From positions 19,186 to 83,185 of the forward strand of contig CAVQGA010000019.1 in assembly GCA_963711915.1 (NCBI GenBank): DNA of 64,000 nucleotides, read 5' to 3'. The translations under genes and the position numbers were made by a program. Position 1 is the first letter of the stretch, and each line of letters starts with the position of its first letter. Under the pieces are notes generated by a model, which did no database searches, was not told where the DNA came from, and saw nothing but the letters and a program-made list of their open reading frames with translations. The DNA is from an uncultured Gemmatimonadales bacterium (GTDB lineage Bacteria > Gemmatimonadota > Gemmatimonadetes > Gemmatimonadales > GWC2-71-9). Positions 20,672-30,590 of the stretch are shown in pieces.

Positions 20672-20791
20672 CGGCGAGTTGCCGTGCCATAGGGAAGCAC
20701 CTGGTTAGGTGACAGGGGGTGTCGAGAGTATAACTGGGGGCGGATAGCGACTTCCAGGGTGTGGCGGCGTCAATTCCTGGAAGGAGCCCAG

Positions 20792-20874
20792 TGCCCGAGG
20801 CGAGAGTCGAACTCGCACGGGGTTGCCCCCGGAGGATTTTGAGTCCTCTGCGTCTGCCATTCCGCCACTCGGGC
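20792..20874 (-). tRNA. tRNA-Leu(CAA): tRNA-Leu, anticodon CAA (type II, normal 14-nt variable arm, A73)
   Basis: Hand-folded minus strand: GCCCGAG-UG-GCGGAAUGGCAGACGC-A-GAGGA-CUCAAAA-UCCUC-C-GGGGGCAACCCCGU-GCGAG-UUCGACU-CUCGC-CUCGGGC-A. CCA is not encoded. Confidence 0.9.
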
Positions 20875-28191: not shown

Positions 28192-28220
28192 GGGGCGGAG
28201 AGGACGGAGGTGGTGTCCGG

Positions 28221-29084
28221 TTATGACCGTAACAGAGTCGCCGGGTCCATCAGGGCAACGATGTCCTTGACTGTCCAGACCTTGTCCGCCAGCCCCGATG
28301 CCATTGCCGGGGTTGTCTTAGTGCCGCCGGCGGCCTTGGTGAGCGTCTGGTGGGGCCGGCAATAGTTGTAATACAGGAAAAATAGGCTCACCGCGTGCGC
28401 GTGATTTTCGGCCTTCTTTGAGAAGCCGTTGGTCAACCTCGTGAAGCGGCGGCTTTGCATCCTGAGCGTCAGGTTGCTGCGCTCAACGTAGGAGGTGGAC
28501 ACAAGCTCCATGTCGGGGCGACCAATTAGGCGGACCTTTTCCGCGCCGATGCAAACCGGGGGCGAGTACCGGCGCGAGGCGTCGGCCGGATTATCCGTCT
28601 GCCCGTACTCCTTCACGAGCATGGCGTAGTCCACCTCGCCAACCTGGAAAGCACTCCGCACGGCGGTCAGATACATGCCGTGCCCGTCGGTCGTGAGCTG
28701 AATGCGCCGAGCCAGCCGCGAACGGAGGTCGCGCATGAACGTGATCGCGTTCTCCTGGCTCCGAGCCCCAACCAGCCACGTGAGCATCAGCTTTGAATCG
28801 CTGTCTACCGCCGTGAACGTCCAAATATCGCCGTCGCCCGGGCGGATTGCCCGGCGCTGCTTCGCGCCACAAAACGCCCAGATTTCATCCGCTTCTGCAC
28901 GGACTGTTTTCAGGTTGCGATGGGCGAGGTCCTGGTAGGTCGAAGCAAACTCCCCCGCTTCGACCAAGAGCTTCATTACCGTTTCTTTGTTGGCCCCGGT
29001 GAGCCGAGCGGTTGCCCGAATGCCGTTGCCCTCACATAGGGCGGCAATAATCGCGGCACGGCGGTCGGCGGAGAGCCTGTTCAT
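28221..29084 (-). CDS. IS1-family transposase (single ORF, ISMhu11-like organisation)
   Basis: N-terminal HTH MNRLSADRRAAIIAALCEGNGIRATARLTGANKETV. DDE core ADEIWAFCGAKQRR..WTFTAVDSDSKL..LTTDGHGMY..YVERSNLTLRMQSRRFTRLTNGFSKKAENHAHAVSLFFLYYNYCRPH matches the IS1 InsB pattern. The stop codon lies inside the left IR. Confidence 0.85.
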   Translation of the reverse strand: MNRLSADRRAAIIAALCEGNGIRATARLTGANKETVMKLLVEAGEFASTYQDLAHRNLKTVRAEADEIWAFCGAKQRRAIRPGDGDIWTFTAVDSDSKLMLTWLVGARSQENAITFMRDLRSRLARRIQLTTDGHGMYLTAVRSAFQVGEVDYAMLVKEYGQTDNPADASRRYSPPVCIGAEKVRLIGRPDMELVSTSYVERSNLTLRMQSRRFTRLTNGFSKKAENHAHAVSLFFLYYNYCRPHQTLTKAAGGTKTTPAMASGLADKVWTVKDIVALMDPATLLRS

Positions 29085-29183
29085 TGTAACGCTCAATATA
29101 GCCAAATGCTGACGCATAGTCAAGCACAATGTGTGTGCGTGGCTAGCGTGTGCGCGGTTGCACAGGATGCTACAGCACTTGAC

Positions 29184-29223
29184 CTATTAGAGCATTAGCG
29201 GTACATTACTAATGCTCTAATAG
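29184..29223. repeat. Perfect AT-rich palindrome (15-bp arms, 10-nt spacer) upstream of the transposase
   Basis: CTATTAGAGCATTAG-cggtacatta-CTAATGCTCTAATAG. Confidence 0.9.
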
Positions 29224-29302
29224 CTCAAGCCTCGACAGCACAGAGAGTTAGGGCACTAAGGCGGCGGCATCTTGGCCTCCTTGGTCGAAAGTGAAAAGAG
29301 GG

Positions 29303-29403
29303 CGGGACGTGTGGGATTCGAACCCACGGGGGCTACCGGCCTAGACAGCTTTCACCCCGTCGGATTTTGAGTCCGCTGCAATCGGCCACTCTGCCAACGT
29401 CCC
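29303..29403 (-). tRNA. Atypical tRNA gene: anticodon CAA, G73 discriminator, about 32-nt variable region (101 nt without CCA)
   Basis: Hand-folded: GGGACGU-UG-GCAG-AGUGGCCGA-UUGC-A-GCGGA-CUCAAAA-UCCGA-[CGGGGUGAAAGCUGUCUAGGCCGGUAGCCCCC]-GUGGG-UUCGAAU-CCCAC-ACGUCCC-G. U8, G18G19, U33, A37 and the T-loop UUCGAAU are all canonical. Confidence 0.7.
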
Positions 29404-29476
29404 CGAAGTTGTCTCTGCGAAGCCGCCCGGTCCCCCCAAAGGTCAGGCGGCTTTCGCATATCCTGCTGCTTCTCTC

Positions 29477-29926
29477 CTAGAGCGCGTAGATCAGACCCTG
29501 CTCATCCCGCAGAAGCCGTTTCCGGTGAACCAGGTTACTGACGGTGTTCACCACGATCCGGCGCGGGTTGTCGGAGCTGGTGTGGATGCGGCTCTCCAGG
29601 GCGTCGGCAATGTCCTCGATTCGGACACCGTGCCCGCGCTTTCCGTTCACGTAATCCAGCACCGCCTCCACCGCGCCGGGACGATCCCCGTTTTCAGCGT
29701 GCGCGACCGACGGCGGAAAGAGCTGGCTCTGCGCGATCCCGTTCACGCTCGGCGGCCCGACCGCAATCGTCGCCGCCCCCGGTACTGACACCGCCATCCT
29801 CTTGAGCGACAGCAACCATTTGCGCTCCGCCTCGATCATCTGCGCTTGCCGCTCCAGCTCGGCCAGCTTCTGGTCGATCACGGCGATGGGGATAACCTGC
29901 TCCACCTCGGCCACGGCAACCTCCAT
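29477..29926 (-). CDS. Hypothetical protein (passenger ORF; N-terminal coiled coil, possible C-terminal winged-helix)
   Basis: 149 aa. QKLAELERQAQMIEAERKWLLSLK, then AVLDYVNGKRGHGVRIEDIADALESRIHTSSDNPRRIVVNTVSNLVHRKRLL, which is reminiscent of Mrr_N/HARE-type wHTH. Resemblance only. Confidence 0.5.
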   Translation of the reverse strand: MEVAVAEVEQVIPIAVIDQKLAELERQAQMIEAERKWLLSLKRMAVSVPGAATIAVGPPSVNGIAQSQLFPPSVAHAENGDRPGAVEAVLDYVNGKRGHGVRIEDIADALESRIHTSSDNPRRIVVNTVSNLVHRKRLLRDEQGLIYAL

Positions 29927-30048
29927 GTAGGGCCAACCTTCCCAAGTGCGTTGAATTTACCTGGCGCGTGTGCGTTGCGCAAGCGCCACGGGCCAGCCGT
30001 GTGAGCGGGCTGGCCCGTGTTTCACGTGTAACAGGGTGTGTGACTGGA

Positions 30049-30291
30049 CTACTCCGGGCGGCCTCTCCATCGTGCATTGGCGGCATCCCGGGCAATGCGG
30101 GACCGTTCCTCAGGGCTCAGCTTGGCGCGTCCGCCCTTCTTGCCGCCCATTGAGCCCCGGGCGACGGCCTCCGGGTTTTTCTCGCGCTGGCCGGGCGGCG
30201 GCGTCTTTTCCGCTTGACCCGTGGCCTCCAACATGGTGCGGAACGCGATCTCGGCCACGTCGGGCCGGAGCTTGGTCGGTTTCTTCGGCAT
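30049..30291 (-). CDS. Hypothetical small basic protein (passenger ORF)
   Basis: 80 aa. The C-terminal GGKKGGRAKLSPEERSRIARDAANARW motif recurs in small phage/plasmid-associated DNA-binding-like proteins. Confidence 0.5.
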   Translation of the reverse strand: MPKKPTKLRPDVAEIAFRTMLEATGQAEKTPPPGQREKNPEAVARGSMGGKKGGRAKLSPEERSRIARDAANARWRGRPE

Positions 30292-30349
30292 GACGGAATC
30301 TAACGCCCGGCGCGGCGGTCATTGTACCAAGTCATAACCGGACATCACC

Positions 30350-30439
30350 GAGGACGGAGAGGACGGAGAGGACGGAGAGGACGGAGAGGACGGAGAGGAC
30401 GGAGAGGACGGAGAGGACGGAGAGGACGGAGAGGACGGA
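30350..30439. repeat. Perfect tandem repeat (GAGGACGGA) x10
   Basis: Counted directly; 9-nt unit. It generates the artefactual RRGRRG / SVLSVL ORFs in the track. Confidence 0.95.
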
Positions 30440-30450
30440 GCCGAAGGTAC

Positions 30451-30534
30451 TGTCATCCCGAGCGCAGGGAGGGATCTTGCCCGGGAAGGCTCGAACCCCG
30501 GCGGAGCAGATCCCTCGCTCCGCTCGGGATGACA
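30451..30534. repeat. REP/MITE-like palindromic element, copy 2 (84-bp subfamily)
   Basis: TGTCATCCCGAGCGCAGGGAGGGATCT...AGATCCCTCGCTCCGCTCGGGATGACA. Confidence 0.85.
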
Positions 30535-30553
30535 CCGCTGACCCCGGATTCCT

Positions 30554-30590
30554 TCCGTCCTCTCCGTCCCTCCGTCCTCTCCGTCCCTCC
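30554..30590. repeat. Inverted copies of the 9-mer (TCCGTCCTC/TCCGTCCC x4) on the other side of the REP
   Basis: Reverse complement of the GAGGACGGA units. Ends 8 nt from the RNase E/G stop codon. Confidence 0.85.

Follow-up and report, generated by a model that had tools for sequence, protein, structure and literature searches.

Within a window of 64,000 nucleotides (nt) from an uncultured Gemmatimonadales bacterium (assembly GCA_963711915.1, contig CAVQGA010000019.1, positions 19,186 to 83,185), we find a transfer RNA (tRNA) gene that is carried as cargo by an IS1-family transposon, next to an open reading frame (ORF) for a small protein with a predicted winged helix, ORF149. The RNA combines the body of a serine tRNA with an anticodon, CAA, that reads the leucine codon UUG. 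The comparisons described below directly support that the gene exists, what it descends from, that the transposon carries it, that its cloverleaf is under selection and that the module recurs in other elements. We put at roughly 45% the probability of the reading that we prefer, namely that a selected, serine-derived tRNA with its anticodon switched to CAA travels as transposon cargo with ORF149 and would misread UUG as serine, weakly or conditionally.

Read on the minus strand, the gene folds into a cloverleaf with a 7-bp acceptor stem (GGGACGU/ACGUCCC) and U8, a 4-bp D stem (GCAG/UUGC) whose loop, AGUGGCCGA, contains G18G19, a 4-bp anticodon stem extended by a G27.A43 mismatch, a 5-bp T arm (GUGGG-UUCGAAU-CCCAC) and G73 as the discriminator. 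The conserved tertiary positions (U8, A14, G18G19, U33, a purine at 37, a UUCRANY T loop and G53-C61) are all present. Rfam model RF00005 covers the gene end to end (model positions 1–71) with 50.3 bits (gathering score 29, E = 8e-8), and covariance model R1, of which the window tRNA is itself a training member, gives 62.7 bits. A preliminary description made from the sequence alone had claimed a complete 7/5 cloverleaf with U8, G18G19, U33 and A37, on which direct reading and the Rfam alignment agree, as well as a G discriminator, which is indeed G73 on the minus strand. It had also described a 32-nt region with a 4+6-bp helix and a 5-nt bulge; we read its possible fold in much the same way, as about 4 bp, a 5–6-nt bulge, 5–6 bp and a 6-nt loop. 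Within this region a 22-nt insert containing GCUGUCUAGGCC resembles the reverse complement of the gene's own D-arm bases GGCCGAUUGCAGC (29375-29387, minus strand); it may have arisen by inverted partial duplication or act as a conformational switch. No CCA is encoded, which is normal for this genome, since the gene for the host's tRNA-Leu(CAA) likewise lacks it.

We also considered a selenocysteine tRNA (tRNA-Sec), with UCA read inside the CUCAAAA loop and an 8/5 structure. A tRNA-Sec has an 8/5 (13-bp) acceptor branch, a 6-bp D stem and a UCA anticodon; the window tRNA has a 7/5 structure, a 4-bp D stem and a CAA anticodon, and RF01852 (tRNA-Sec) did not match it at the gathering score. This candidate was rejected.

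The body of the RNA is that of a serine tRNA. A search of IMG/VR contigs with a pattern of its D and T arms retrieved five tRNAs, all of which ARAGORN named tRNA-Ser(tga). Over positions 8–43 plus the T arm (alignment A4), the window tRNA is identical to one tRNA-Ser(UGA), our locus L176, at 51 of 54 positions; the other three are the substitutions U34C and G35A, which account for the change from UGA to CAA, and C43A. Three more tRNA-Ser(UGA) genes are identical to it at 44–47 of the 54. The acceptor stem differs from that of L176 in five of seven pairs, with all pairs maintained. Against the host's tRNA-Leu(CAA), identity falls to 41/53 in the core and 2/15 in the acceptor stem and discriminator, the window tRNA has G15-C48 where the host tRNA has A15-U48, and its D loop is 1 nt longer. 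The host gene was correctly placed in the preliminary description as a normal tRNA-Leu(CAA) with A73 at 20792-20874, where ARAGORN and Rfam agree (minus strand). Descent from a tRNA-Leu(CAA) of the host type, with which the anticodon arm and the base of the variable arm are shared, was dropped because true tRNA-Ser(UGA) genes have the identical D arm, anticodon stem and T arm. The base-by-base agreement with L176 argues that the window tRNA descends from the tRNA-Ser(UGA) lineage, with its anticodon switched to CAA.

The identity features point the same way. In Escherichia coli the identity set of seryl-tRNA synthetase (SerRS) consists of G73, G1-C72, G2-C71 and C11-G24, and bacterial leucyl-tRNA synthetase (LeuRS) requires A73, rules that come from the work of Asahara, Himeno, Shimizu and Normanly. 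SerRS does not use the anticodon as an identity element, and CAA affects the naming of such a tRNA and not its chargeability. By direct reading the window tRNA has G73, G1-C72, G2-C71, C11-G24 and a D loop of serine format; its 3-70 pair is G-C, compared with A-U in L176 and in E. coli. What marks a tRNA-Leu is missing, as there is no A73, no A15-U48 core and no body of leucine type. The anticodon, CAA, departs from that of a standard tRNA-Ser, which is NGA or GCU. The variable stem of a tRNA-Ser is a regular one of about 5–7 bp in the right orientation, to which the window tRNA corresponds in part: its arm is long, at 32 nt, and has a 5–6-nt bulge after 4 bp.

Evidence for selection comes from a diverged homologue, L004, in an IS (insertion sequence) copy on the minus strand of a Gemmatimonas metagenome-assembled genome (MAG), which is laid out as repeat, ORF80 homologue, coiled-coil/winged-helix-like ORF, hairpin and tRNA. 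The L004 tRNA has the same CUCAAAA loop, discriminator (G73) and T arm, and its variable arm is also long (18 nt, with a regular 6-bp stem). Between it and the window tRNA 7 of 20 stem pairs are changed on both sides and none of the 20 on one side only, and we conclude that the window RNA is under selection because CAA, G73 and the long arm have been kept through these compensatory stem changes. The preliminary description had allowed that homologues might show the long arm to be a trait of leucine tRNAs in this lineage, with A73; L004 with its G73 and the serine-type body speak against this. As the variable regions of homologues measure 18 nt (L004) and about 20 nt (L173a), both with regular 6-bp arms, the length of 32 nt is peculiar to the window copy and no trait of the family.

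The preliminary description had placed the tRNA on a transposon, and this is borne out by 19-nt inverted repeats and a 9-bp target duplication that enclose it together with two small ORFs and an IS1-family transposase (Table 1). The element sits between an rne-like gene and rplU-rpmA and has a guanine-plus-cytosine (GC) content of 0.57–0.66, compared with about 0.70 in its flanks. Its ends read GGTGGTG and GGTGATG, those of relatives GGTAGTG...AGTTTGAA, and we take them to match the IS1 pattern GGnnnTG (ISfinder); a 9-bp target duplication is the norm for IS1. The order on the minus strand is ORF80, ORF149, GC hairpin, tRNA, MPPP* mini-ORF, operator-like repeat, promoter, transposase. Instead of the classical two-ORF frameshift layout of IS1 (InsA/InsAB') the transposase is a single ORF of 287 amino acids (aa), which presumably suits the single-ORF or passenger-carrying IS1 subgroups (in ISfinder, the single-ORF and ISMhu11 subgroups). 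Its best NCBIfam match is transpos_IS1, at 61 bits and under the cut-off of 100. About 8,000 homologues were found, the nearest of them (80–88% identical) in soil metagenomes and Gemmatimonadota MAGs, which by itself would make a host from the Gemmatimonadota probable. The transposon looks recently active, given that its transposase is intact, its repeats are nearly perfect and its target duplication is perfect.

Table 1. Features of the tRNA-bearing transposon and the host comparator tRNA (feature; position in the window; strand; basis and remarks)
tRNA	29403..29303 (101 nt)	-	Rfam RF00005 match; serine tRNA-Ser(UGA)-type body, 7/5, G73, no CCA encoded
Anticodon CAA (reads UUG), loop CUCAAAA (U33, A37)	29367..29369	-	direct reading; loop identical in diverged homologue L004
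32-nt variable region CGGGGUGAAAGCUGUCUAGGCCGGUAGCCCCC	29328..29359	-	between anticodon stem and T stem
IS1-family transposon, 2,141 bp	28209..30349	-	inverted repeats and 9-bp target duplication; tRNA is cargo
Terminal inverted repeat, transposase end, GGTGGTGTCCGGTTATGAC	28209..28227		19 nt, 95% complementary to 30331-30349; overlaps transposase stop codon
Terminal inverted repeat, cargo end, GTCATAACCGGACATCACC	30331..30349		partner of 28209-28227
9-bp target-site duplication GAGGACGGA, copy 1	28200..28208		direct reading
9-bp target-site duplication GAGGACGGA, copy 2	30350..30358		direct reading; first unit of 9-nt tandem array
IS1-family DDE transposase, single ORF, 287 aa (MNRLSADRR...)	28221..29084	-	Pfam DDE_Tnp_IS1 PF03400, 36.1 bits (cut-off 24.1)
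Sigma-70-like promoter TTGACT-17-TATATT for transposase	29095..29123	-	10/12 matches; 2 sites found, 0.3 expected
21-nt inverted repeat (CTTGACCTATTAGAGCATTAG / CTAATGCTCTAATAGCTCAAG), operator-like	29178..29229		95% complementary; upstream of transposase promoter
Shine-Dalgarno GGAGG and mini-ORF ATG CCG CCG CCT TAG (MPPP*)	29256..29280	-	32 nt downstream of tRNA
GC-rich hairpin (GCGAAAGCCGCC...GGCGGCTTCGC), no T tract	29417..29457	-	direct reading; between ORF149 and tRNA
ORF149: N-terminal long helix, linker, C-terminal winged helix; family motif S.NPRR..NT..NL..R	29477..29926	-	AlphaFold2; family alignment A3
ORF80, small basic protein (...GGKKGGRAKLSPEERSRIARDAANARW)	30049..30291	-	just inside cargo-end repeat
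Host ordinary tRNA-Leu(CAA), A73, A15-U48 (comparator, outside element)	20792..20874	-	ARAGORN; Rfam 55.6 bits

Several signals around the tRNA recur in related elements. The tRNAs of L004, L049 and L020 are each preceded by a hairpin analogous to the one that separates ORF149 from the window tRNA, and the window's hairpin would form the 3' end of the ORF149 message after cleavage by RNase P. A scan for sigma-70-like promoters found none directly upstream of the tRNA. Repeats comparable to the operator-like one precede the transposase in L020 and L023. A Shine-Dalgarno sequence followed by ATG-(CCN)2-4-stop (MPP*, MPPP* or MPPPP*) lies less than 50 nt from the tRNA in four elements whose tRNA anticodons differ: that of the window, L020 (3245-3256), L120 (1846-1857) and L125 (908-925). 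Such mini-ORFs were matched four times in 11.3 kb beside tRNAs and 17 times in 2.03 Mb overall. Pro-Pro-stop peptides are a classical signal for ribosome stalling and termination pausing, and the poly-proline mini-ORF may be a regulatory leader.

One other sequence, a 2,199-bp Logan contig (L081), is 100% identical to the element and is the sole other carrier of ORF149 and the exact transposase; because the flanks are identical too, it derives from the same genome. When plasmid and phage collections were searched by BLAST with the complete element, only short IS1 transposase matches came back, in Rhizobiales plasmids, and nothing from phages. Just outside the cargo-end repeat, at 30350-30440, are about ten tandem copies of the 9-nt unit GAGGACGGA, which is also the target-site duplication and is found again at 28193-28209; inverted copies at 30550-30588 flank a hairpin with 27-nt arms (30451-30534). 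Either the IS landed in a pre-existing repeat or the array is tied to insertion.

Like the window tRNA, others recur as cargo of IS1 and IS1595 elements, a stop-codon reader among them; that the gene is part of a recurrent cargo module with a winged-helix protein had escaped the preliminary description. Searches of related loci with the tRNA by nhmmer and short blastn gave nothing useful, the tRNAs being too diverged in sequence, and the other IS-borne tRNAs were found with a motif scanner and a covariance model. The model was built from 14 tRNAs and run on 160 loci encoding transposase relatives, 142 of which have enough upstream sequence. In 20 of these 142 (about 15 distinct), a tRNA lies 119–234 nt upstream of the transposase on the same strand, and it is inside the element where the inverted repeats could be located (L020 and L058). 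For 25 distinct tRNAs associated with ISs, base pairing holds in 95.9% of pair cells, and changes on both sides occur at 19 of 20 pairs, a statistic that is partly trivial as different tRNA families are mixed in it. The canonical 7-nt anticodon loop (C32/U33, A37/A38) is kept in about 15 of 20 copies. Others (L049, L134, L023a and L171b) preserve only the top half of the molecule, the acceptor and T parts, with degenerate D and anticodon parts.

Body and anticodon disagree in many of these tRNAs. Class I bodies of arginine type (GUAGCUCAAYUGGAUAGAGCGCC, with A20) carry ACU in L020, L100, L108 and L140 and GCU in L023, L106, L125 and L171, as well as in L120 (C20) and L124 (5'-truncated, with position 20 unreadable); others carry CGA (L112) or, apparently, CGC in a shortened loop (L127). 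Four peat-bog metagenome contigs contain a near-identical 89-nt class II tRNA of serine type with C73 and the anticodon ACG, for Arg codons (L157 656-744, L158 3249-3337, L160 2396-2484 and L161 1064-1152), 163 nt upstream of the transposase; three of the sequences are identical and that of L157 differs by one T-stem base. The transposases of these four loci have CGC at many invariant Arg positions. The serine scaffold of the window tRNA recurs with G73 and the ochre-reading anticodon UUA in L173/L174, where ARAGORN calls it 'tRNA-Stop'. It is one of two class II tRNAs (1761-1851 and 1865-1947 in L173, the same in L174) that lie upstream of an ORF149-family gene and adjoin an IS1595-family transposase; the second is leucine-like, with A73 and the anticodon UGG in a proline-type loop with G37, and another leucine-like UGG copy with A73 is found in L172 (1808-1893). 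We considered whether the ochre reader rescues an in-frame stop in the neighbouring IS1595 transposase, an idea that found no support, as the two transposase ORFs lie in different frames (a frameshift). Body and anticodon match in other IS tRNAs, with GUU and G73 or with UGU.

SerRS and LeuRS ignore the anticodon, and arginyl-tRNA synthetase (ArgRS) needs C35 plus U36 or G36, bases that are kept in ACU and GCU. By these rules most of the mismatches leave the tRNA chargeable, because the serine, leucine and arginine synthetases ignore all or part of the anticodon. Misfits to this pattern are the tRNAs with CGA (L112), CGC (L127) and GGA (L042), which have G35, and L120 and L042, which lack A20.

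Some copies have unusual loops and still score 54–80 bits. In L058 (3267-3355) the D-loop region of the UGU tRNA is enlarged by an insertion of 19 nt, the ACU group has the non-canonical T loops AUCGUGC (L020 3303-3376, L108 3285-3358) and AUCGUCC (L100 3303-3376), and in the GUU group (L136 3309-3381) the T loop is GUCAGGU. A separate 86-nt tRNA with UAU, G73, a long arm, an 8-bp acceptor stem (GGAAGGCG/CGCCUUCC) and a 4-bp T stem is found in a Terracidiphilus (Acidobacteriota) MAG (L050 1742-1827, minus strand), about 1.7 kb from an IS1-family transposase on the opposite strand; it resembles an allo-tRNA(UAU).

ORF149, of 149 aa, belongs to a small protein family that recurs beside tRNAs of this kind. 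AlphaFold2 predicts a helix at residues 14–46 and a winged helix at 83–148 (mean pLDDT, the program's confidence score, 70). A phmmer search of 1.84 billion representatives gave 40 matches at E <= 1e-3, most of them 103–198 aa long and many full-length; two are low-complexity matches in proteins of more than 1,300 aa. A k-mer-indexed protein search found no close relative but ORF149 itself, and searches of Pfam, NCBIfam and PADLOC gave no match to a defence or other named family. An ORF149-family gene adjoins an odd tRNA in four of seven distinct fetched loci (the window, L171, L172 and L173/L174), and in L171 the GCU tRNA beside it is accompanied by a degenerate second copy. The transposase at these loci is of the IS1 family in the window and L168, and of the IS1595 family in three of the seven (L172, L173/L174 and L175), with a tRNA in only the first two of these three. 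The preliminary description had asked whether homologous tRNAs always accompany this IS1-type transposase; the serine scaffold of L173/L174 adjoins one of the IS1595 family. ORFs built in a similar way are also found in other ISs that bear a tRNA; that of L127 has a HARE-HTH match and that of L049 a weak one. Jackhmmer found no cross-homology among the coiled-coil/winged-helix cargo ORFs of different ISs, and their relatedness therefore rests on the architecture and these HARE-HTH matches.

A tblastn search of 80 related loci located ORF80 homologues upstream of the transposase in about 50, including all the tRNA-bearing ones. They share the C-terminal motif GGK.GG.ARA..L..EER..IA.KAA..RW, and ORF80 had no match in Pfam, NCBIfam or PADLOC; it may play the part of an InsA-like regulator in the element. 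The nearest relatives of the transposase (L162-L167, 83–86% identical) have no tRNA; between the ORF80 homologue and the transposase they carry restriction-modification genes, for either a XamI-like endonuclease plus an Eco57I-type methylase or a methylase plus an S subunit, or else genes for a HipA_2 kinase and a Ser/Thr kinase. This IS clade thus appears to move conflict or defence cargo, because restriction-modification and HipA/kinase genes occupy the cargo slot in relatives. TIR-domain cargo is found at L170, where an ORF149-family gene lies on a contig that shows no transposase.

The closest described parallel is the allo-tRNAs, which have serine identity and non-serine anticodons and insert serine in E. 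coli (Mukai et al. 2017, Nucleic Acids Res 45:2776; PMC5389517). The authors noted a link to transposable elements and to toxin-antitoxin systems, as well as a pseudogene that overlaps an ORF for a 'transposon-related protein' (PMC5389517; reviewed in PMC7609411). The window tRNA shares with them a long arm and G73 with a non-serine anticodon; allo-tRNAs are likewise natural, come from soil lineages, include some with stop anticodons and have inactive or degenerate variants (PMC5389517). However, their acceptor/T branch is 8/4 or 9/3, with long D and anticodon stems like those of tRNA-Sec, whereas the window tRNA is a canonical 7/5 molecule in which an eighth acceptor pair would be U.C, and we do not count it as an allo-tRNA because this defining architecture fails. 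It also differs in its core, which is that of a near-ordinary tRNA-Ser(UGA), in its position inside an IS1-family transposon with a winged-helix partner, and in its much longer, bulged arm.

A serine body with an altered anticodon is likewise found in the E. coli supD/serU amber suppressor and in the tRNA-Ser(CAG) of CTG-clade yeasts, through which the Leu-box codon CUG is read as serine, sometimes ambiguously, in competition with a leucine tRNA (PMC6041473). These cases are chromosomal, being laboratory mutants or else fixed changes of the code to which codon use has adapted across the genome, whereas the window tRNA is mobile cargo, its host retains tRNA-Leu(CAA), and the UUG codons of its element still stand for leucine. 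Phage and other mobile-element tRNAs, which serve codon supplementation or escape from anticodon nucleases, are similar as fast-evolving accessory cargo with unusual loops, but they normally keep body and anticodon matched. Passenger elements of the IS1 family (ISfinder) share the single-ORF transposase, GGnnnTG ends, 9-bp duplication and variable upstream cargo; a tRNA with a winged-helix protein is a cargo apparently undescribed among them, and we found no report of tRNA cargo in an insertion sequence, or of the winged-helix partner, in the searchable literature. The window tRNA thus appears to be a natural anticodon-switched tRNA with serine identity features, newly tied to a defined transposon family and a protein partner.

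From these comparisons we infer expression, serylation, decoding and any benefit, in a scheme of four parts. First, the tRNA would be co-transcribed with ORF149, which we propose because no promoter of its own was detected, freed by RNase P and 3' processing, and given its CCA post-transcriptionally like the tRNAs of the host. Secondly, SerRS, using G73, the first acceptor pairs and the long arm, would most likely charge it, although the bulged 32-nt arm may make it a poor or regulated substrate. Thirdly, Ser-tRNA(CAA) would compete with the host's tRNA-Leu(CAA) for UUG codons (about 1% of the leucine codons of nearby host genes), and the outcome would be low-level or conditional misreading of leucine as serine. 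Finally, the tRNA would belong to the wider IS1/IS1595-associated set in which body and anticodon disagree.

A number of observations weigh against this scheme, some of which concern the codon itself. By homologue comparison all four UUG codons of the element encode conserved leucines: L40 (90%) and L217 (99%) of the transposase, L38 of ORF149, which is the only invariant column of family alignment A3, and the leucine in the ORF80 motif RTMLEATG. Recoding of UUG in the element's own genes was rejected on this ground, as homologues all have leucine at the UUG positions, and efficient insertion of serine would damage the element itself because its UUGs sit at conserved leucines. The preliminary hypothesis of a serine-type tRNA reading UUG, like an allo-tRNA, is thus strengthened by the body and the identity features and fails for recoding of the element. 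Moreover, UUG accounts for 4 of 43 leucine codons in the element and for 3 of about 230 in neighbouring host genes, a roughly sevenfold difference that would suggest a correct leucine decoder rather than a misreader. Charging is open to doubt as well, since the variable stem is interrupted by 5–6 nt after 4 bp and single bulges in the variable arm were enough to make allo-tRNAs SerRS-rejecting in E. coli (PMC7590224). The unconstrained minimum-energy fold of the RNA, at -43.4 kcal/mol, is a rod-like structure in which the arm insert is paired with the D arm; it is favoured by 5.9 kcal/mol over the cloverleaf (-37.5 kcal/mol). In addition, pair 27-43 is mismatched. The tRNA predictors to which the preliminary description had looked are divided: Rfam accepts the gene, while ARAGORN called the tRNA-Leu of the window (20791-20874) and not the gene at 29403..29303, probably on account of the 32-nt arm. 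Lastly, the tRNA is dispensable for transposition, because the closest transposase relatives (81–88% identical) are without it.

A possible hint of decoding comes from the sister elements. The transposase genes of ISs bearing ACU or GCU tRNAs (L020, L100, L108, L023, L106, L120, L124 and L125) contain on average 2.75 AGT codons, compared with 0.93 in the others (Mann-Whitney p = 5e-5, uncorrected for phylogeny), and AGT occurs at columns conserved as Arg or Lys in 3 of 22 cases there compared with 1 of 131 elsewhere, the lone other case being L112, likewise with an arginine-like tRNA. The signal is ambiguous because AGT also encodes a 99%-conserved serine in five of these eight ISs. The enrichment may reflect either ambiguous decoding of AGU or a lineage bias. 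On balance we regard the RNA as functional and as probably a SerRS substrate, though a weak or conditional one.

The first alternative to misreading, a serious one although we hold it to be somewhat unlikely, is that the RNA is selected for its tRNA shape and does not decode, as the preliminary description had also suggested with a tRNA-like regulatory or decoy RNA. It would serve as RNase P/Z punctuation or insulation between the cargo message and the transposase unit, as a decoy for tRNA-targeting enzymes, or as a ligand of ORF149 through its enlarged arm. Its fixed position would be explained in this way, as the tRNA always lies between the cargo ORF and the transposase promoter, 119–234 nt upstream, and in the window, L004, L049 and L020 it comes after a GC hairpin that has no T tract. 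The recurrent M-P-P-(P)-stop mini-ORF beside the tRNAs suggests a regulatory leader; engineered tips of the variable arm can be protein-binding aptamers that sequester a tRNA (PMC7590224), and the oversized, bulged arm of the window copy with its competing fold, as well as the sister copies reduced to a top half (L049, L134, L023a and L171b), would be at home in such a role. However, most copies (about 15 of 20), including that of the window, keep a canonical anticodon loop along with full D and anticodon stems and compensatory changes, which counts against a pure RNase P/Z signal because such a signal needs neither the loop nor these stems. The anticodons are also non-random, with mismatches of body and anticodon mainly where the synthetase is tolerant, and the phylogeny-uncorrected AGT enrichment in the ACU/GCU elements (p = 5e-5) hints at a link to decoding.

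The window tRNA could instead be a decaying, neutral tRNA-Ser pseudogene that was captured once, with the anticodon change, the arm insert and the 27-43 mismatch as damage. We regard this as improbable. The rejection of the gene by ARAGORN, the resemblance of the insert to an inverted partial copy of the D arm that favours a fold other than that of a tRNA, the finding of the element in a single genome, and the existence of near transposase relatives without a tRNA and of degenerate tRNA remnants in sister elements would all be expected of a relic. Against decay, only the anticodon, position 43 and the arm set the core apart from that of a working tRNA-Ser, none of the universal tertiary positions is disrupted, and every acceptor pair is kept although five of seven differ from L176. 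L004 has independently retained CAA, G73 and a long arm with seven compensatory pair changes, and the transposon looks recently active. A true leucine tRNA that boosts the decoding of UUG, a codon rare in the high-GC host and commoner in the lower-GC element, would account for the four UUGs at conserved leucines (4/43 compared with 3/~230 in the host) and for an anticodon loop identical to that of the host's tRNA-Leu(CAA), but it is very improbable given a tRNA-Ser body (51/54, compared with 41/53 in the core and 2/15 in the acceptor for tRNA-Leu), G73 in place of the A73 that LeuRS requires, G15-C48 in place of A15-U48, and a host that already has a normal tRNA-Leu(CAA).

A more far-reaching proposal, which we consider distinctly unlikely as it stands, is that IS1 and IS1595 elements carry a two-part module for deliberate, conditional misreading, made up of a coiled-coil/winged-helix protein, from the ORF149 family or resembling it, and a chargeable, anticodon-switched tRNA, in which the protein would control or sequester the tRNA and the poly-proline mini-ORF would act as a sensor. 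The tRNA bodies would then be serine with CAA, UUA or ACG, leucine with UGG, and arginine with ACU or GCU, and the enlarged arm of the window copy would possibly be a handle for the protein. If true, such a misreading module could be a device for addiction, for stress or against invaders, directed at codons that the host seldom uses.

Natural tRNAs in which charging identity and anticodon conflict are rare, and they are raw material for changes of the genetic code and for deliberate mistranslation. The window tRNA adds a canonical 7/5 example whose ancestry, from tRNA-Ser(UGA) to CAA, can be read base by base. Its placement in an apparently active transposon suggests a route by which mismatched tRNAs move between genomes, and elements of this kind may spread tRNAs that misread the code. 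The comparative set now comprises about 20 tRNA-bearing transposons, with an ochre-reading sibling, leucine-type tRNAs with a proline anticodon, arginine-type tRNAs with serine anticodons, a protein partner and a mini-ORF. Scaffolds with tolerated insertions in the arm and the D loop may serve genetic-code engineering. For the biology of these bacteria, the set raises the questions of whether mobile missense and nonsense suppressors are tolerated or used, how they are restrained, and whether they play a role in the conflict between element and host.

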